DNA from: Squalus acanthias
Lineage: Eukaryota
DNA length: 35,926 nt
Direction of reading: 5' to 3'
NCBI GenBank assembly: GCA_030390025.1
Contig: JASTWF010000334.1
Span: 496,001 to 531,926 of the forward strand
A program made the translations under genes and the position numbers. Below the pieces are notes generated by a model. That model was not told the DNA's origin, made no database searches, and saw only the letters and a program-made list of their open reading frames with translations. Shown piece after piece: positions 3,247-25,434 of the stretch (the stretch's first letter is position 1; each line of letters begins with the position of its first letter).

Positions 3247-4197
3247 ATGGCAGCACAGCTCAGCCCCGTGGCATGCTCCTCCTGCACTATGTGGGAAATC
3301 AGGGACACTTCCTGTGTCCCTGACAACCATGTGTGCGGGAAGTGTATCCAGCTGCAGCTACTGGCAGACCGCATTGCAGTGCTGGAGCTGCGAATGGATG
3401 CATACTGGAGCATTCGCAATGCTGAGGACATCGTGGATAGCACGTTTAGGGAGTTGGTCACACCGCAGGTAAAGGCTGCACAGGCAGGAAGGGAATGGGG
3501 GACCACCAGGCAGAGTAGTAGGCGCAGGCAGGTAGTGCAGGGGTCCCCTGTGGACATCCCCCTCTCAAACAGATATACCACTTTAGATATTGTTGAGGGA
3601 GATGGCTTATCGGGGGAAGGCAGCAGCAACCAACTTCCTGGCACCATGGGTGGTTCTGCTGCACAGGACAGGAGGAAAAAGAGCGGGAGAGCTATAGTGA
3701 TAGGGGATTCTATTGTAAGGGTAATAGATAGGCGTTTCTGCTGCCGCAAATGAGACTCCAGGATGGCATGTTGCCTCCCTGGTGCAAGGGTCAAGGATGT
3801 CTCGGAGCGGCTGCAGGGCATTCTGGAGGGGGAGGGTGAACAGCCAGTTGTCGTGGTGCATATAGGTACCAACGATATAGGTAAAAAATGGGATGAGGTC
3901 CTAAAACCTGAATATAGGGAGTTAGGAGGTAAATTAAAAAATAGGACTTCAAAGGTAGTAATCTCAGGATTGCTACCGGTGCCACGTGCTAGTCAGAGTA
4001 GAAATAGAAGGATATTTCAGATGAATACGTGGCCAGAGGAATGGTGCAAGGGGGAGGGATTCAAATTCCTGGGACATTGGAACCAGTTCTGGGGGAGGTG
4101 GGACTAGTACAAACAGGACGGTTTGCATCTGGGCAGGACCGGGACCGATGTCCTAGGGGGAGTATTTGCTAGTGCTGTTGGGGAGGGTTTAAACTAA
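3247..4197 (+). pseudogene. CR1 ORF1 (CxxC-CxxC zinc finger, leucine zipper, SGNH esterase) with two premature stops
   Basis: CSSC..CGKC, heptad leucines, IVIGDSIVR, LPGAR, VHIGTND and DGLHL. In-frame stops at 3751 and 4105; natural end GGT TTA AAC TAA at 4186-4197. Confidence 0.9.
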
Positions 4198-7100
4198 AAT
4201 GGCAGGGGGTTGGGAACCTGTGCAGGGAAACAGAGGAAAGGGAAGCAAGGATAGAAGCAAAAGACAGGAAGAAGAAAAGCAAAAGTGGAAGGCAGAGAAA
4301 TCAAGGGTGTAAATCAAACAGGGCTACAGTAAATAATAATTCTAAAAGGACTAAGAGTGTTAAAAAAACAAGCCTGGAGGCTTTTGTGTCTTAATGCGAG
4401 GAGCATTCGTAATAAGGTGGATGAATTAGCTGCGCAAATAGATGTAAACGGATATGATATAATTGGGATTACGGAGACATGGCTCCAGGGTGACCAAGGT
4501 TGGGAATTCAACATCCAGGGGTATTCAATATTCAGAAGGACAGACAAAAAGTAAAAGGAGGTGGGGTAGCATTGCTGGTTAAAGAGGAGATTAACACAAT
4601 AGTAAGGAAGGATATTAGCTCTGATGATGTGGAATCTGTATGGGGAGAGCTGAGAAATACCAAGGGGCAGAAAACGTTAGTGGGAGTTGTATACAGACCC
4701 CCAAACAGTAATGCTGAGGTTGGGGTTGGCATTAAACGGGAAATTAGAGATGCGTGCAATAAGGGCACAGCAGTTATCATGGGTGACTTTAATCTACATA
4801 TAGATTGGGCTAACCAAATTAGTAACAATACTGTGGAGGAGGAATTCCTAGACTGTATACGGGATGGTTTCCTGGACCAATATGTCGAGCAACCTACTAG
4901 AGATCAGGCCATCTTAGACTGGGTATTATGTAATGAGAAAGGATTAATTAGCAATCTTGTTGTGCGAGGCCCCTTGGGGAGGAGCGATCATAATATGATA
5001 GAATTCTTCATTAAGATGGAGAGTGAAGTAGTTGACTCAGAGACTAGGGTCCTGAATTTAAATAAAGGAAACTACGATGGTATGAGGCGCGAGTTGGCTA
5101 GGATGGATTGGGGAGCGTTACTTAAAGGGTTGACGGTGGATAGGCAATGGCAAACATTTATAGATAGCATGGATGAACTACAGAATTTGTTCATCCCTGT
5201 TTGGCATAAAAATAAAACAAAAAAGGTGACTCAACCGTGGCTAACAAGGGAAATTAGGGATAGCATAAGATCCAAGGAGAGGACATATAAATTGGCCAGA
5301 AAAAGCAGCAAACCTGAGGATTGGAAACAGTTTAGGATTCAGCAAAGGAAGACAAAGGGATTAATTAAGAAGGGGAAAATAGAATATGAGAGTAAGCTTT
5401 CAGGGAACATAAAAACTGACTGTAAAAGCTTCTATAGATATGTGAAGAGAAAAAGATTGGTGAAGTCAAGCGTAGGTCCCTTGCAGTCAGAATCAGGGGA
5501 ATTTATAATGGAGAACAAAGAAATGGCTGACGAATTAAATACATACTTTGGTTCTGTCTTCACAAAGGAGGACACAAATAAACTCCCAGAGATGTCGGGG
5601 AACATCGGGTCTAATGAGAGGGAGGAATTGAATGAAATCACTATTTGCAGGGAAATGGTGTTTGGGAAATTGACGGGATTGAAGGCCGATAAATCCCCAG
5701 GGCCTGATAATCAACATCCTAGGGTACTTAAGGAAGTGGCCCTAGAAATAGTAGATGCATTGCTGGTCACCTTTCAAAATTCTATAGACTCTGGAATAGT
5801 TCTTATGGATTGGAGGGTAGCTAATGTAACCCCACTATTTAAAAAAGGTGGTAGAGAAAAAACGGGGAATTATAAGCTTGACATTGGTAGTGGGCAAAAT
5901 GCTAGAGTCCATCATAAAAGATGTAATAGCTGAGCACTTGGAAAACAGTGACAGGATCGGACAAAGTCAACATGGATTTACAAAAGGTAAATCATGCCTG
6001 ACTAATCTACTGGAATTTTTTGAGGATGTAACTGGTAGAATAATTAAGGGAGAAACAGTGGATGTGGTGTATTTGGACTTTCAGAAGGCTTTCGATAAGG
6101 TCCCGCATAAGAGATTAGCGTGCAAAGTTAAAGCACATGGGATTGGGGGTGAGGTACTGATTTGGATAGAGAACTGGTTGGCAGACAGGAAACAAAGAGT
6201 TGGAATAAATGGGTCTTTTTCCGAGTGGCAGGCAGTGACTAGTGGGGTACCACAGGGATCGGTGCTAGGACCCCAGCTATTCACAATATATATTAATGAT
6301 CTAGACGAGGGAACTAGATATAATATCTCTAAGTTTGCAGACAACACAAAGCTGGGTGGGCGTGTGTGCTGTGAGGAGGATGCAGAGAAACTCCAGTATG
6401 ATTTAGACAGGTTGGGTGATTGGGCAGATGCATGGCAGATGCAGTATCATGTGGATAATTGCGAGGTTATCCACTTTGGTGTCAAAAACAGGAAGACAGA
6501 TTATTATCTGAATGGCAATTGAAGGATCCAGATTGTTCCCAAAGAACTCTGGGATACTTGACTACTACTGAAGGATCCTGCTTGTTCCCAAAGAATGCTG
6601 AGATACTTGACTACATTACCCTCTACTTATTTCGGATAGTAGGTTTAGCTGATTAAGGCATATTTGTAGACTGGAAGGTGCCTCTCTCCCCTTATCAAAC
6701 CTTGGAATATATGTATTCACAACCTCAGTAGAGCCATTGTCAAAGCACAGCCTGGCCTCCCAAGAGATAAGGGAGCAATTAACAACCAACACAGTTCCAG
6801 GCACGGGGGTACATCTACTATTCGAACCTGGTCACCCAAGAGATAAGGGAGCAATTAATGACCAACACGGTTCCAGTCACTGAGCATCCAAGCCATTACG
6901 GCCTTGAGCCACCCCGCTCTGTCCGACAGCCAGGGATAAAATATGTTTTCTCAAACTATAAACTATGCCCGCAAAGGAAGAGATAACAGCAAGAATTTGG
7001 GGAGTAGGATGAGGCAACCAACATCTGTGACTGGCATGGTCAGGGTTCAAGGGGAGGGCCCGACAGTTGAGTGACTAACCATATAACCAATAGAGAGTAA

Positions 7101-7988
7101 CTGTAGTGACACTGTTTGTACGTGTACGCCCCATTCTGTAGTAAGTGGGCGGTGCTTATAGAAATGTATAACTTGAATGAACCATTACTTGTTCCTCAGA
7201 GAGTGCGCCCCTAGCTTGAGGAAGCTGAGTGGCTCTCCCTTGTGCACAAGTCTTTTGTTTATTTTAATAAATTCTGAACTTGTCCTCAATTCCGTCTCCG
7301 TCTAGAGTTTCTCCAAATTCGAATCTAACACAATAGATTGGGAAAAGGTGAAGTGCAACGAGACCTGGGAGTCCTTGTGCACCTGTCGCTGAAGGTAAGC
7401 ATGCAGGTGCAGCAGGCGGTTAAGAAGGCAAATGGTATGTTGGCCTTCATAGCGAGAGGATTCGAATACAGAAGCAAGGATGTCTTGCTGCAGTTAAACA
7501 AAGCCTTGGTGAGACCACACCTTCTGTATTGTGTGCAGTTTTGGTCGCCTTATCTGAGGAAGGATGATCTTGCCATGGAGGGAGTGCAGCGAAGATTCAC
7601 CAGACTGATACCTGGGATGGCAGGAATGACGTATGAAGAGAGATTGGGTCGATTAGGCTTATATTCGCTAGAGTCTAGAAGAATGAGAGGGGATCTCATT
7701 GAAACTTATAAAATTCTAACAGGACTAGACAGACTAGATGCAGGAAGGATGTTCCCGATGGCGGGGGAGTCCAGAACCAGAGGTCACAGTCTAAGTATAA
7801 GGGGTAAGCCATTTAGGACTGAGATGAGGAGGAATTTCTTCACCCAGAGAGTGGTGAACCTGTGGAATTCTCTACCACAGAAGGCAGTTGAGGCCAATTC
7901 ATTAAATATATTCAAGAAGGAGATAGATATATTTCTTAAGGCTAAAGGGATCAAGAGATATGGGGAGAAAGCAGGGACAGGGTACTGA
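4188..7988 (+). pseudogene. CR1 ORF2 (APE endonuclease and reverse transcriptase), disrupted
   Basis: LNARSIRNK, ITETW, GVVYRPP, MGDFN, SDH, YLDFQKAFD, QGSVLGP and FADN (degenerate FADD). Frameshifts near 4383, 4535 and 5875; LTR insertion at 6520. Confidence 0.9.
6520..7330 (+). mobile_element. Solo LTR (811 bp) of an endogenous retrovirus or LTR element
   Basis: TG...CA termini and a perfect 4-bp TSD CAAT (6516-6519, 7331-7334). Two pairs of internal ~45 bp direct repeats, CCAAT at ~7087, a TATA-like element at ~7157-7170 and AATAAA at 7266-7271. It splits the CR1 codons YYLNGN|RLG, which are intact in the sister copy at 14894-15712. Confidence 0.9.
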
Positions 7989-8380
7989 ATTTGCATGATC
8001 AGCCATGATCTCATTAAATGGCGGAGCAGGCTCAAGGGGCCGAATGGCCTACTCCTGCTCCTATCTTCTATGCTTCTATGCTTCTATTCTTCTAAACTCG
8101 AAGAGTATAGGCCCAATCTACTCAATCTCTTCTCACAGGACAACCCTCTCATCCTAGCAATCAATCCAGTGGACCATTGTTGCAGTGCCTCAGATAAGGA
8201 GACTAAAACTGTGCACATTTCTCCAGGTGTGGTCTCACCAAAGCCCTGCACAACTGTAGCAAGACTTCCTTACTCTTGTACTCCAACCCCCTTGCAATAA
8301 AGGATAACATGGCATTTGCCTTCCGATTGCTTGCTGTACCTGCATGCTAACTCTTTATGTTTCCTGTCCGAGGACACCAA

Positions 8381-14319: not shown

Positions 14320-15702
14320 GAGAAACATAGAAACATAGAAGATAGGAGCAGGAGTAGGCCATTCGGCCCCTCGAGCCTGTTCCGCCATTTAATGAGATCA
14401 TGGCTGATCATCCAAATTCAGTACCCTGTCCCTGCCTTCTCCCCATATCCCTTGATCCCTTTAGCCTTAAGAAATATATCTAACTCCTTCTTGAATATAT
14501 TTAATGAATTGGCCTCAACTGCCTTCCATGGTAAAGAATTCCACAGGTTCACCACTCTCTGGGTGAAGAAATTCCTCCTCATCTCAGTCCTAAATGGCTT
14601 ACCCCTTATCCTTAGACTGTGACCCCTGGTTCTGGACTCCCCCGCCATCGGGAACATCCTTCCTGCATCTAGTCTGTCTAGTACTGTTAGAATTTTATAA
14701 GTTTCAATGAGATCCCCTCTCATTCTTCTAAACTCTAGCGAATATAAGCCTAATCGACCCAATCTCTCTTCATACGTTATTCCTGCCATCCCAGGTATCA
14801 GTCTGGTGAATCTTCGCTGTACTCCCTCCATGGCAAGAACATCCTTCCTCAGATAAGGCGACCAAAACTGCACACAATACTCAAGGAGTGGTCTCACCAA
14901 GGCCCTGACAACTGCAGCAAGACATCCTTGCTTCTGTATTCGAATCCTCTCGCTATGAAGGCCAACATACCATTTGCCTTCTTAACCGCCTGCTGCACCT
15001 GCATGCTTACCTTCAGCGATTGGTGCACAAGGACACTCAGGTCTCGTTGCACTTCCCCTTTTCCCAATCTATTGCCGTTCAGATAATAATCAGCCTTCCT
15101 GTTTTTGCCACCAATGTGGATAACCTCGCATTTATCCACATGATACTGCATCTGCCATGCATCTGCCCAATCACCCAACCTGTCCAAATCATACTGGAGT
15201 TTCTCTGCATCCTCCTCACAGCACACACGCCCACCCAGCTTTGTGTCGTCTGCAAACTTGGAGATATTACATCTAGTTCCCTCGTCTAGGTCATTAATAT
15301 ATATTGTGAATAACTGGGGTCCTAGCACCGATCCCTGCGGTACCCCACTAGTCACTGCCTGCCACTCAGAAAAAGACCCGTTTATTCCAACTCTTTGCTT
15401 CCTGTCTGCCAACCAGTTCTCTATCCAAATCAGTACCTTGCCCCCAATCCCATGTGCTTTAACTTTGCAAGCTAATCTCTTATGAGGGACCTTACCGAAA
15501 GCCTTCTGAAAGTCCAAATACACCACATCCACTGGTTCTCCCTTATCTATTCTACCAGTTACATCCTCAAAAAATTCCAGTAGATTAGTCAAGCATGATT
15601 TACCTTTTGTAAATCCATGTTGACTTTGTCCGATCCTGTCACTGTTTTCCAAGTGCTCAGCTATTACATCTTTTATGATTGACTGCAGCAGTTTTCCCAC
15701 TT
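14320..15702 (-). mobile_element. 5'-truncated CR1 LINE, same subfamily as 2810-8085
   Basis: ORFs 14894-15712 and 14418-14900 are nearly identical to 5848-6522 and 7338-7988. Tail (agaaacat)n at ~14321-14340. Confidence 0.93.
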
Positions 15703-16808
15703 GTTTCCCCACTAAGTCCCATTAGTTTCTCAAGCACTTTTTCTCTGCTGATCTTAATTGCTTTAAGTTGCTCAGTCTCATTAGCCCCTTGGTTCCCCAT
15801 TACTTTGGTATGTTTTTTGTGTCTTCTACTGTGAAAGCAGATAGAAAATATTTGTTTAAAGTCTCTGCCATTTCCTTATTCCCCATTATAATTTCTCCTG
15901 TCTCAGCATCTAAGGGACCAACGCTTACCTTTGCTATTTACTTCATTTTTGCATACTTGTAGAAGCTCTTACAATCTGTTTTAATATTTCTTGCTAGTTT
16001 ACTCTCATATTCTTTTTTCTCTCTTTTCATCAATGTTTTGGTCATCCTTTGCTGGTTTCTAAAACTCTCCCAATCCTTAGGCTTGCTATTATTCTTCACA
16101 ACATTATAATCAGCTTCTTTTAATCTAATACTATCCTTAACTTCTTTATTTAGCCACAGATGGCTAATTTTTCCTGTGGAATTTTTATTTCTCTATGGAA
16201 TGTATATTCATTGAAAATTTTGGAATATTTCTTTAAATGTTTGCTTATCTACTGTCATACCTTTTAATCTAATTTCCTAATCTACCTTAGCCAATTAATT
16301 CCTCATACCTATGTAAATGGCTTTATTTAAGTTTAAGAATCTAGTTTTAGACTGAGGTATTTCACTCTCAAACCCAATGTGAAATTCTATCATATTATGA
16401 TTGCTCTTCCCCAGAGTTTCCTTTACTATGAGATTACTAATTAACCCAGTCTCATTACACAATACAAGATCTAAAATAGTTTCTTCCCTGGTTGGTTCCA
16501 TGAAGTATTGTTCTGGGAAACTGTCTCGAATGCATTCCATGAACTCGTCCTCCAAATTGATTTGCCCAGTCAATATGAAGATTAAAGTCTCCCACAATGA
16601 TTGCATGAGCTTTGTTACAAGCTCCTATTATTTGCTGATTAATAGTGTGTCCAACGGTATAGCTACTCTTAGGGGGCCTATAATCTACTCCCACCAATGT
16701 TTCCTGTCCCTTGTTGTTTCTTATCTTCACCCATACTGATTCTACTTCCTGATCTTCTGAGCCAAGGTCCCTTTTCACTACTGTCCTTATGAGATCCTTT
16801 CTCACTAC

Positions 16809-21495: not shown

Positions 21496-22452
21496 ATGGG
21501 AGAGCAGGTGATGTGTTACTGCTGCAATATGTGGGAGCTGGTGGACACCATTGATGCTCAGGGTGATCACATTTGCAGTAAGTGTTGGCTGCTCGAGGAA
21601 CTCCGGCTCCGTGTTGATGAGCTGGAGTCCGAGCTTCAAACACTACGACACATCAGGGAGGGGGAGAGTTACCTGGACTCTGTGTTCCAGGAAATAGTCA
21701 CACCAATTAGATTAACTAATTCAGATGTAGTCCGTGGTCAGGGACAGGAGGGTGTGACTATGAGTGAGGCAGGTACGGGGATCCAGGAGGTAGTGTTGGA
21801 GGAGCCGCAGCCCTTGCTCTTGTCCAACAGGTTTGAGGCTCTTACTCCCTGTGAGGACGGGAGCAGGGACTGCAGGGAGGATGAGCAACCTGGCCGCAGC
21901 ACCGTGGAACAGGGGGCCATTCAAGTGGAGGGAGTAAAAAGAAATGTTGTAGTGGTAGGGGATAGTATCATAAGGGGGATAGATAGGGTTCTTTGCAGCC
22001 GAGAGCGAGAGTCCCAAAGGTTGTGTTGACTGCCCGGTGCCAGGGTTAAGGACATCTCCTCTGGGCTGGAGAGAAACTTGGAGTGGGAGGGGGAGGATCC
22101 AGTGGTCGTGGTCCATGTTGGTACCAACGACATAGATAGGACAAGGAAAGAGGTTCTGCTGAGGGAGTATGAGCAGCTAGGGGCCAAATTAAAAAGCAGA
22201 ACCACAAGGGTAATAATCTCTGGATTACTACCTGAGCCACGAGCAAATTTGGCTAGGGTAAATAAAATCAGAGAGTTAAATGCGTGGCTCAAAGACTGGT
22301 GTGGGAGAAAAGGGTTTTGCTTCTTGGGACACTGGCACCAGTACTGGGATGGGAGAGAGCTGTTCCGTTGGGACGGACTTCACTTGGCCAGTGCTGGGAC
22401 TAGAATCCTGGCGAATCGAATAACTAGGGCTGTAGAGAGGGCTTTAAACTAA
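21496..22452 (+). pseudogene. CR1 ORF1 (zinc finger, leucine zipper, SGNH esterase) with one premature stop
   Basis: CYCC..CSKC, LEELRLRVDELESELQTL, VVVGDSIIR, VHVGTND and DGLHL. A single TGA at 22027 lies in the C(C)LPGA motif; the ORF ends RALN*. Confidence 0.92.
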
Positions 22453-25434
22453 TTAGTGGGGGGGAGGTTTCAAGAGAGCGAAGAATAAAAATGTCAGCGG
22501 AGAAGGCAATAGAGCAAATTAGCAGTGGGGAAATTAAAAACCAGAGCATGTCAGGAAAGGACAGAATATATAAAGATAAAGGTAAAGTAGTAAAGGGGGT
22601 AAAAGCAGGAATGAATTGTCACAAAACATGTTTAAAAGTTCTTTATCTGAATGCACGCAGCATTCGTAACAAAATAGACGAGTTGACGGTACAAATAACT
22701 ACACATGGGGATGATCTGGTGGCCATTACAGAAACATGGCTGCGAGGTGACCATGACTGGGAACTAAACATCCAGGGGTATTTGACTATTAGGAAGGACA
22801 GACAGGAAGGAAAGGGAGGTGGGGTGGCTATGTTAATAAAGGATGGAATCACTGCAATAGTGAGAAATGATATTGGGTCAAAGGATCAGGATAGTGAAAC
22901 AGTTTGGGTGGAGATAAGGAATAATAAGGGGAAAAAGTCACTAGTGGGTGTAGTCTATAGGCCTCCTAACAGTTGTAACTCTATTGGTCGGAGTATAAAT
23001 CAGGAAATAGTTGGGGCTTGTAAGAAGGGAACAGCTATAATCATGGGAGATTTTAACTTTCATATTGACTGGACAAATCAAATTGGGCAGGGCAGCCTTG
23101 AGGAAGAGTTCACAGAGTGCATTAGGGACGGGTTCCTTGAGCAGTACGTTACTGAACCAACCAGGGGGCAGGCAATCTTAGATCTGGTCCTGTGTAATGA
23201 GACAGGATTAATAAAAAATGTCCTAGTAAAGGATCCCCTTGGAATGAGTGACCATAACATGGTTGAATTCCAAATTCAGTTGGAGGGTGAGAGAGTTGGA
23301 TCTCAAACCAGCGTACTAAGCTTAAATAAAGGAGACTATGAAGGTATGAGAGCAGAGTTGACTAAAGTGGACTGGGAAAATAGATTAAGGTGTAAGACGG
23401 TACAGGAGCAGTGGTGTACATTCAAGGAGGTATTTCACAACTTTCAAGAAAAATATATTCCACTGAGGAAAAAGGGGCGTAAAAGAAAAGACAGCCATCC
23501 GTGGCTAAGTAAAGTAATAAAGGAAAGTATCCGACTGAAAACAAGGGCATATAAAGTAGCCAAATCTAGTGGGAGGATAGAAGATTGGGAAGCATTTAAA
23601 AGCCAGCAAAGAATAACTAAAAGATTAATTAAGAAGGGGAAGATAGATTATGAAAGTAAACTAGCAAAAAATATAAAAACAGATAGCAAGAGTTTCTACA
23701 GTTATATAAAAAGAAAAAGGGTGGCTAAAGTGAATGTTGGTCCCTTAGAGGACGAGACCGGGAAATTAGTAGTGGGGAACACGGAGATGGCAAATACGCT
23801 GAACAAATATTTTGTATCAGTCTTTACAGTAGAGGATACTAAAAATATCCCAACACTGGACAAACGGGGGGCTATAGGGGGGCAGGAGCTAAACACGATT
23901 AAAATCACTAAGGAGATGGTACTCGGTAAGATAATGGGACTTAAGGCAGATAAATCCCCTGGACCTGATGGCTTACATCCTAGGGTCTTGAGAGAAGCAG
24001 CGCTAGGGATTGCGGATGCATTGGTGGTAATTTTCCAATACTCCCTGGATTTGGGAAAGGTCCCAGCAGATTGGAAAACTGCTAATGTAACGTCCTTATT
24101 TAAAAAGGGAGGTAGACAAAAGGCTGGAAACTATAGACCAGTTAGCCTAACATCTGTGGTTGGTAAAATGTTGGAGTCCATTATTAAGGAAGCAGTAACA
24201 GGACATTTGGATAAGCATAATTTAATCGGACAGATTCAGCATGGTTTTATGAAGGGGAAATCATGCTTGACAAATTTGCTCGAATTCTTTGAGGACGTAA
24301 CAAACAGGGTGGATAAAGGGGAACCAGTGGATGTCGTGTATTTGGACTTCCAAAAGGCATTTGATAAGGTGCCACACAAAAGATTACTGCACAAGATAAA
24401 AAATCACGGGATTGGGGGTAATATACTGGCATGGGTGGAAGATTGGCTATCTAACAGAAAACAGAGAGTTGGGATAAATGGTTCATTCTCGGGTTGGCAA
24501 TCAGTAACTAGTGGTGTTCTGCAAGGGTCAGTGCTGGGACCCCAACTCTTTACAATCTATTTTAACGATTTGGAGGAGGGGACTAAGTGCAACGTATCCA
24601 AGTTTGCTGACGATACAAAGATGGGAGGAAAAGCAGTGAGTGAGGAGGACATAAAAAGCCTGCAAAAGGACATAGACAGGCTAAGTGAGTGGGCGGAAAT
24701 TTGGCAGATGGAATATAATGTTGGAAAGTGTGAGGTTATGCACTTTGGCAGAAAAAATCAAAGAGCAAGTTATTATCTAAATGGAAAGAAACTGCAAAGT
24801 GCTACAGTACAAAGGGGTCCTGGTGCATGAAACACAGAAGGTTAGTATGCAGATACAGCAGATGATCAGGAAGGCCGATGGAATCTTGGCTTTTATTGCA
24901 AGGGAGATGGAGTATAAAAGCAGGGAAGTCTTGCTTCAGTTATACAAGGTACTGGTGAGGCCACACCTGGAATACTGCGTAAAGTTTTGGTTTCCATATT
25001 TAAGAAAAGATATACTTGCTCTCGAGGCAGTTCAGAGAAGGTTCACTCGGTTGATTCCGGAGATGAGGGGGTTGACTTTTGAGGAAAGGTTGAGTAGGTT
25101 GGGCCTCTACTAATTGGAATTCAGAAGAATGAGAGGCGATCTTATTGAAACATATAAGATTGTGAGGGGGCTTGATCGGGTGGAGGCGGGGAGGATGATT
25201 CCACTGATGGGTGAGACTAGAACTAAGGGGCATAATCTTAGAATAAGGGGCTGCCGTTTCAAAACTGAGATGAGGAGAAACTTCTTCATTCAGAGGGTAG
25301 TAAATCTATGGAATTTGCTACCTCAGAGAGCTGTGGAAGCTGCGACATTAAATAAATTTAAAATGGAGATAGACAGTTTCCCAGCTGATAAGGGAATTAA
25401 GGGTTATGGGGAGCGGGCAGGGAAGTGGACGTGA
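22443..25434 (+). pseudogene. CR1 ORF2 (APE endonuclease and RT)
   Basis: A 779-aa open stretch (22491-24830) has the endonuclease and RT motifs including KFADD. A small deletion or frameshift occurs near 24815 and a stop at 25111. Confidence 0.93.

Follow-up and report, generated by a model that had tools for sequence, protein, structure and literature searches.

CR1 copies in the window

The window, a 35,926-nt stretch of Squalus acanthias DNA, includes two CR1 copies, and all of the features described below lie on the + strand. Copy 1 is a dead, shark-type LINE. Its ORF1 (3247..4197) has a Cys-rich N-terminus and an SGNH/GDSL esterase domain (Pfam Lipase_GDSL_2, E 2.4e-10), as in CR1, is interrupted by premature stops at 3751-3753 and 4105-4107, and ends G-L-N-stop; homologues of ORF1 were found in sharks, rays, coelacanth, fish, frogs, turtles and squamates. 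ORF2 (4387..7988), for an APE endonuclease and reverse transcriptase, is fragmented by frame breaks near 4540 and 5880 and by a solo-LTR-like insert (6520..7330) with TG...CA ends and CAAT on each flank; its pieces match Exo_endo_phos and RVT_1 (E 2.8e-25), the APE and RT of CR1. CR1 LINEs carry a 3' octamer repeat in place of poly(A), and copy 1 ends in TTCTATGC-like octamer repeats (8066..8094) without poly(A). An octamer is mentioned in the available text of PMC2612034, and an esterase ORF1 followed by an APE and RT ORF2, as in copy 1, is described for vertebrate CR1 LINEs in PMC13343379 and PMC3905857, in whose available text the word 'frameshift' is absent.

Copy 2 belongs to another subfamily, and its ORF1 is 42.6% identical to that of copy 1. 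Its heptamer and stop are at 22443..22452, its G-tract at 22458..22464 (+9 to +15), and its first in-frame ATG (22491) lies downstream of the G-tract; the -1 frame reaches the endonuclease motif at 22644 with no indel needed.

The ORF1-ORF2 junction

A first-pass annotation had placed the slippery heptamer T_TTA_AAC directly 5' of the ORF1 stop of copy 1, and re-reading of 4186-4197 (GGT TTA AAC TAA) confirms this: the heptamer (4188..4194) is in X_XXY_YYZ phase and adjoins the stop (4195..4197), an arrangement shared by 13 of the 15 junctions that carry a heptamer. The window has 11 occurrences of TTTAAAC, both strands counted, and its presence in phase ahead of the stop at both ORF1 ends is beyond chance.

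Sixteen junctions were seen as DNA, comprising the two window copies and 14 metagenome loci; these were retrieved with a pattern (CCLPGARVxD-like) lying far upstream of the heptamer, and 26 of the 40 loci obtained stop or decay before the ORF1 end, giving no junction. A canonical -1 heptamer, [TG]TTAAAC, is in the 0-frame phase in 15/16, with TTTAAAC in 14, GTTAAAC in one (L003) and none in a single decayed, L2-like locus; counts across junctions overstate independence, because the bird-type loci are related. U_UUA_AAC is the viral -1 shift site of IBV coronavirus, and equine arteritis virus uses a G_UU(A)-type site of the same form as the G_UUA_AAC of L003 (PMC5009743, in excerpt). The heptamer types are shared with these viruses, the host here being a nuclear retroelement in which shifting is predicted.

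The annotation had proposed comparing heptamer phase and synonymous constraint across CR1 junctions. Phase is fixed and the codons are invariant (TTA 15/15, AAC 15/15, GCT 11/11), whereas each of the other 20 conserved ORF1 columns uses 2-4 synonymous codons; in background usage TTA accounts for 7/97 Leu and AAC for 13/34 Asn codons. The reads likewise point to synonymous-site constraint on the heptamer, there being no variant at 4186-4197 among the best-supported 40 of 93, unlike six ORF1 third positions near the heptamer, which are variable.

Upstream of the heptamer the -1 frame is closed within 1-5 codons in 11/15 junctions and has no ATG in any of the 15. In copy 1 a -1-frame stop (4170..4172) lies five codons ahead of the heptamer with no ATG between them, and therefore no upstream AUG start is possible for ORF2. 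The downstream ORF is open in -1 from the shift site, with a short overlap and no upstream start, the exceptions being L031 and copy 1, both decayed copies. Across 548 linker codons of 11 junctions there are no stops in the -1 frame against 43 and 53 in the other frames, a count that leaves out L031 (endonuclease in the +1 frame), takes copy 1 only up to its extra T, and ends short of a -1 stop just ahead of the endonuclease motif in L006. Read-through of the stop was rejected, the 43 stops being those of the 0 frame. Linker length varies from 37 to about 93 codons, phase is kept throughout, and the 250 -1-frame codons that precede a first ATG include no stop.

The copy 1 linker (4198..4381) is Lys/Arg-rich and open in the -1 frame, which runs for 65 codons without ATG to a stop at 4392-4394; CLNARS, the endonuclease motif at 4387, is offset by one base and reads in the ORF1 frame. 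The break is at a run of four T (4382..4385), one base more than in related copies. Over 4060-4480 the reads list a single indel, a 1-nt deletion at 4382, which shows up in all four runs, at 12%, 3%, 2/2 reads and 59% by depth (X21 has 6 reads only, and X17 is an RNA run by guess). In run X1, 100 clipped contigs end at 4383 with C as the preceding base, consistent with three T. The annotation's proposal of an extra T near 4383 is thereby supported, its frequency not being cleanly quantified.

Taken with the apparent heptamer swaps described below, the invariant codons, fixed phase, open linker and lack of an upstream AUG argue that CR1 ORF2 is likely made by ribosome frame slippage rather than restart, and, with high probability, that programmed -1 frameshifting yields an ORF1-ORF2 fusion, as the annotation had suggested. 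Its frameshift core stands on this comparative evidence; its argument that ORF2 has no AUG fails for the family, and its hairpin is not a conserved one.

Start codons and candidate stimulators

The main alternative, which we regard as improbable, is that ORF2 is a separate product of termination-reinitiation or of a second ribosome starting at a linker AUG or near-cognate codon, with the heptamer a by-product or a termination context. In-frame ATGs are present in 9/11 linkers (L021 has none). In copy 1 codon 4320-4322 is AGG, and by depth 4321 G>T (75% in X1, 53% in X9, 73% in X17) makes codon 45 of the -1 frame an ATG, so that the family majority has an ATG at 4320 in good context (A at -3, G at +4). 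Lack of an AUG therefore describes this decayed copy only and cannot be used as evidence. Close to the stop, ATG is at codon 4-5 in 5/15 junctions and GTG in two more, and L027 has a UAAUG stop-start overlap; initiation immediately after the stop would likewise maintain an open -1 linker. Precedent exists in SART1 and mammalian L1, where, in the available text of PMC2881922, PMC3708506 and PMC3894237, ORF2 of a bicistronic mRNA depends on ORF1 translation, as in CR1, and initiation is translation-coupled (PMC2881922, PMC3708506); the UAAUG of L027 resembles that of SART1 (PMC2881922, in excerpt). These elements give a separate ORF2p, whereas no conserved start codon was found at or near the ORF1 stop across 15 CR1 junctions, six of which have none of ATG, GTG, TTG, CTG or ACG in codons 3-8. 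First linker ATGs are scattered from codon 4 to codon 90, and because they sit at unrelated positions there is no conserved in-frame AUG of the kind that the annotation had named as a counter-argument.

TURBS-type reinitiation uses a UGGGA motif at a set distance 5' of the stop. Within 120 nt upstream this motif is absent in 7/15 junctions and scattered at 30-115 nt in the rest. Reinitiation also leaves unexplained the invariant TTA, AAC and GCT codons, the 250 stop-free codons before a first ATG, and the ORF1 tails that switch between heptamer classes. The ATG at 4199-4201, in the +1 frame, was rejected as an ORF2 start, since that frame closes after 37 codons; the A at 4199 is altered in 12% of X1 depth and 42% of X9 depth.

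Eukaryotic -1 sites usually require a stimulator. The hairpin proposed in the annotation (4202..4223) is indeed predicted by folding in copy 1 (-10.0 kcal/mol, z -2.87 against 100 shuffles), but it is not conserved across junctions and falls to -6.5 kcal/mol once 4221 and 4229 carry the letters of the majority; 4221 T>A, which weakens it, reaches 54%, 62% and 35% by depth in X1, X9 and X17. RNAalifold returned no pairs over 13 junctions, and only one of these had z < -2 in its first 45 nt. No conserved stem-loop or pseudoknot was found 5-9 nt downstream in the 13 junctions, pseudoknots not being explicitly modelled, and in this CR1 differs from coronavirus-type sites.

The candidate stimulator is instead a G-tract (4205..4214), with GGGGG at +11 to +15 and a second G run at +18. 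GGGGG over +11 to +15 is present in 12/13 junctions (background 0.2% per position), with the run starting at +11 in 10/13, and thus occupies the interval, 11-15 nt downstream, of the linear motifs in PRRSV/cardiovirus-type frameshifting. The PRRSV nsp2 frameshift is trans-activated via CCCANCUCC, which lies 11 nt beyond the shift site on the 3' side (PMC5009743, in excerpt). Both signals are short, linear and at 11 nt, although CCCANCUCC is C-rich and trans-activating, whereas the CR1 tract is G-rich, a candidate signal likened to it by analogy only. G-quadruplex patterns were found in 0/13 (three-tier) and 8/13 (two-tier) junctions; as of 2016, natural use of G-quadruplexes in frameshifting was not known, according to the available text of PMC5009743. 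Predicted long-range duplex partners of the G-tract are scattered, the five best in 10 junctions falling in unrelated places; six junctions share a loose cluster 565-670 nt upstream, in or near a Pro/C-rich part of ORF1. An unstructured G-tract stimulator, if true, would be unusual.

It is very unlikely that the TTTAAAC-stop-G-tract block is some other DNA or RNA signal (protein-binding, packaging or internal promoter), or that L-N is simply a protein end, with no shift site. In favour of such a signal, conservation of the block extends as far as about 4218, beyond which the other subfamilies differ (81, 38 and 7 loose-ended contigs); no partner is known for the G-tract; and each copy has a further TTTAAAC in its 5' region (2832, 21393). 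However, constraint on a protein end cannot fix synonymous positions, and one would not expect a binding site to preserve codon phase or the -1 placement of ORF2, nor to switch to G-N, G-F, F-F, N-F and K-N ends. Least credible is a fusion that arises in the RNA, whether through splicing or through a polymerase slip that adds one base, for although public gene models (P0042, P0122 and P0127) join ORF1 to the F-K-L frame at the protein level, no GT..AG joint was seen, none exceeds a depth of about 112 against 1e5-1e6 in DNA runs (contigs only), and homopolymers within the heptamer do not exceed 3.

Frameshift model and distant relatives

Under the frameshift reading, in CR1 elements that are active a fraction of ribosomes would slip back one base at U_UUA_AAC, just before the ORF1 stop, with the Leu and Asn tRNAs presumably slipping in tandem to give a transframe junction ...G-L-N/K-L-K-W-Q. 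The predicted product is an ORF1-linker-endonuclease-RT fusion, Gag-Pol-like, that could enter ORF1p multimers by its N-terminal part; most ribosomes would stop at the ORF1 end, giving a high ORF1p:fusion ratio. Slippage may be stimulated by the G-tract at +11, acting either as a linear signal bound by a protein or as a two-tier G-quadruplex, or by slow termination at the adjoining stop. In some families, linker AUGs may serve as an additional, minor route.

Reviews call it unclear how ORF2 is translated from the bicistronic mRNA of LINEs (PMC3894237 and PMC3708506, in excerpt), and in most vertebrates the dominant retrotransposon is the CR1 group (PMC13343379, in excerpt); with a 25-nt signal kept from sharks to birds, the question can be tested. 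If the model is true, CR1 ORF2p is misannotated and its true N-terminus is that of ORF1p, the esterase is physically joined to the reverse transcriptase, the ORF1p:ORF2p stoichiometry is set in retrovirus style, and host frameshift-acting factors could restrict LINEs. A -1 frameshift is stated, in the available text of PMC5911963, as required for ORF2 in the Dictyostelium APE-type LINEs TRE5-A and TRE3-A, which share that claim with CR1 but are of another lineage with another ORF1. No report of frameshifting for CR1 was found in literature judged by titles and term counts, although early papers, Repbase notes and supplements may mention it.

Further junction DNA was sought, with no loci in viral contigs, no match in plasmids or phages, and in GTDB one decayed locus lacking the ORF1 end and then none. 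Among ORF1 proteins, 88/121 end in L-N, and in only two of these 88 is the preceding residue one without a T-ending codon (background 16.6%). Other tail types among distant ORF1s are G-N, G-F, F-F, N-F and K-N. Tails of distant ORF1s fit a strict slippery heptamer in 43/69 cases against a background of 10%, where fit means amino-acid compatibility at the protein level rather than DNA; the 43 span six heptamer classes, and 15 are of types absent from the query ends. In an ORF1 esterase tree built without the last three residues, the G-N and E-N ends form one clade. Heptamers have apparently been swapped in distant relatives.

We offer more tentatively, as a possibility that we think somewhat doubtful, that -1 frameshifting is ancestral and general in esterase-ORF1 CR1 LINEs across animals. 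Such elements would make an uncleaved Gag-Pol-like fusion, with at least six heptamers swapped; in vertebrates RNA structure would have been replaced by a G-tract at 11 nt, recognized by a protein of the host or of the element, or folding as a G-quadruplex, and ORF2 output would be regulable.

CR1 elements of the window and reads over the copy 1 junction

The region 3247–8094 is a full-length, dead CR1-type LINE (copy 1), with an SGNH esterase in ORF1, an endonuclease and a reverse transcriptase in ORF2, and an octamer-repeat tail; the nearest named matches of its ORF1 are from sawshark, at 74% and 71% identity, which points to a shark host. There are two stops within ORF1 and frame breaks within ORF2, and the reverse transcriptase region is interrupted by an 811-nt solo-LTR-like insert (6520–7330) with TG...CA ends and CAAT on either flank, which itself contains a 54-nt internal repeat (6751–6804, 6827–6880). 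Copy 1 is informative on its active ancestor, not on activity today. At its 5' end lies a 53-nt direct repeat, 96% identical (2814–2866 and 2887–2939), which may be a promoter monomer; an inverted repeat there flanks a core that includes TTTAAAC. A 5'-truncated copy on the minus strand (14321–15701) matches the 3' portion of copy 1 at 95% identity, lacks the LTR-like insert, and directly adjoins an older CR1 fragment (15717–16748). Copy 2, the second CR1, has the same ORF1 ending at 22443–22452 and an ORF1 42.6% identical to that of copy 1; its −1 frame reaches the endonuclease without an indel and contains three ATGs.

The first-pass annotation had proposed a −1 frameshift for copy 1 from the slippery heptamer T_TTA_AAC (4188–4194) directly before the ORF1 stop (4195–4197), an ORF2 without AUG, and a hairpin at 4202–4223, and every feature it described is present in copy 1. 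Four public runs were compared over 4060–4480. The sole indel listed is the absence of one base at 4382, seen in all four (12% and 3% of depth in two large contig sets, 2/2 reads and 59% in the others), with which contigs clipped at 4383 and a contig of 143 letters instead of 144 agree. An ATG at 4320 is the family majority (75%, 53% and 73% of depth), and the 3' arm of the hairpin is variable (4221 T>A at 54%, 62% and 35%); the missing AUG and the hairpin are therefore properties of copy 1 and do not extend to the family, most of which has the ATG.

Conservation of the ORF1/ORF2 junction

Metagenomes scanned with an alignment of ORF1, the search pattern lying far upstream of the junction, yielded 39 loci, and GTDB one more; 14 of these 40 reach beyond the end of ORF1. 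Twelve have TTTAAAC, one has GTTAAAC (L003, 33–35% identical to the window copies across the ORF1 end), and one has neither (L033, a decayed element, L2-like by eye). Together with both window copies, the heptamer is present at 15 junctions, and at 13 of them the stop follows it immediately. The terminal codons are TTA and AAC in 15/15 and the preceding alanine is GCT in 11/11, while each of the remaining 20 conserved ORF1 columns uses two to four codons. The two shark copies in the window have the same codon at only 21 of 48 shared residues, so there has been enough time for synonymous change. The signal is real and strongly conserved. Two records labelled bacterial (P0008, L001) contain a vertebrate-type CR1 ORF1, probably through contamination by host DNA.

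The −1 frame is free of stops over 548 codons in the 11 junctions that extend as far as the endonuclease, against 43 and 53 stops in the two alternative frames; L008, L012 and L020 were excluded for their short length and L031 as decayed, with its endonuclease in +1, and the endonuclease motifs of L006, L021 and L027 were placed by eye. L006 has a single −1 stop just ahead of the motif, beyond the counted stretch. Of the open codons, 250 precede the first in-frame ATG, for which a hand calculation assuming a stop in 3/64 of codons under neutrality gives a chance of ~6e-6, the loci being partly non-independent. Upstream of the heptamer the −1 frame closes within 1–5 codons in 11/15 junctions and contains an ATG in none of the 15. 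In three public gene models (ray, stork) ORF1 continues, at the protein level, into F-K-L and then the endonuclease.

No consensus pairs were obtained in a common RNA fold of the junctions, and z-scores over 45 nt range from −1.28 to +0.84 in 12 of 13. The candidate stimulator is a G-tract (4205–4214 in copy 1): GGGGG spans +11 to +15 from the heptamer in 12/13 junctions, starting exactly at +11 in 10, and in L003 it is displaced by one codon towards the heptamer; another run of G begins at +16 to +19 in 10 of the 13. The glycine codon at the tract is GGG in 12/12 vertebrate-type junctions versus 32/122 in ORF2, and the constraint therefore acts on nucleotides. A two-tier G-quadruplex pattern matches 8/13, and no conserved pairing partner of the tract was found among the junctions. 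The distance from the shift site equals that of the protein-bound motif of PRRSV (PMC5009743).

Probable −1 frameshifting, with reinitiation as a rival

Judged from sequence, programmed −1 frameshifting is the simplest account of the CR1 junction, and probably the right one, given the invariant heptamer, an overlap of few codons, apparent swaps among slippery classes, and a −1 phase that stays fixed over linkers (heptamer to endonuclease) of 37 to about 93 codons. Reinitiation is improbable by comparison, yet remains a serious rival because ATGs lie within 9/11 linkers and immediately behind the stop in 5/15 junctions, one of them as UAAUG; it leaves both the codon constraint and the junctions lacking a nearby start unexplained. 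Frameshifting by −1 is the most likely function of the conserved signal, its candidate stimulator being of an atypical kind, and the two mechanisms could operate side by side in some families. In L027 (3492–3504) the slippery heptamer occurs together with UAAUG, a stop-start in the −1 frame that resembles the one of SART1.

No report linking CR1 to frameshifting was found in the available parts of PMC13343379, PMC3894237, PMC5009743, PMC5911963, PMC5006619, PMC3905857, PMC7175516, PMC2734521, PMC2881922 and PMC3708506, nor in searches of a collection that has few subscription articles and none of the papers first describing CR1; the accessible text of the 2016 recoding review (PMC5009743) does not mention CR1. 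For Dictyostelium TRE5-A and TRE3-A a −1 frameshift is stated to be needed for ORF2 (PMC5911963), so among LINEs in general the idea already has a precedent.

ORF1 protein ends

L-N ends 88 of 121 ORF1 proteins (the query and the best 120 of 133 matches), and 86 of the 96 among these in which the end of the esterase is complete; hosts include sharks, rays, coelacanth, a teleost, frogs, turtles and squamates. The L-N-stop end is missing from two L2-type proteins, which sit on a long branch, and in P0244, one representative from the profile search described below, ORF1 continues via T-K-K-Q into the endonuclease through a linker without Met. The 18 matches of a distant clade end in G-N (11), G-N-x (2), Q-E-N (3) or otherwise (2), which would fit G_GGA_AAC and G_GAA_AAC.

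Of the proteins listed by a profile search, 150 representatives in all, 136 were new; 122 carry a tail as well as the motif that marks the end of the esterase, leaving 69 after removal of near-duplicates. A tripeptide encodable by a strict X_XXY_YYZ heptamer falls within the last three positions in 43/69 (background 10%) and at the extreme end in 29/69 (background 3.5%); the fit is absent in 26/69. Compatible classes are GGGAAA (14), TTTAAA (13), GGGTTT (7), TTTTTT (4), AAATTT (4) and AAAAAA (1); the profile query included L-N, G-N and F-F ends, and 15 matches belong to further types. As no DNA loci of the distant clades were found in GTDB, viral contigs, plasmids or phages, their heptamer fit is one of protein-level compatibility. 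In one distant ORF1 group (P0187, P0201, P0193, P0207, P0216), K-N occupies the position where ORF1 usually ends and ~2–12 further residues come after it, so that an A_AAA_AAC site with a stop further downstream is possible.
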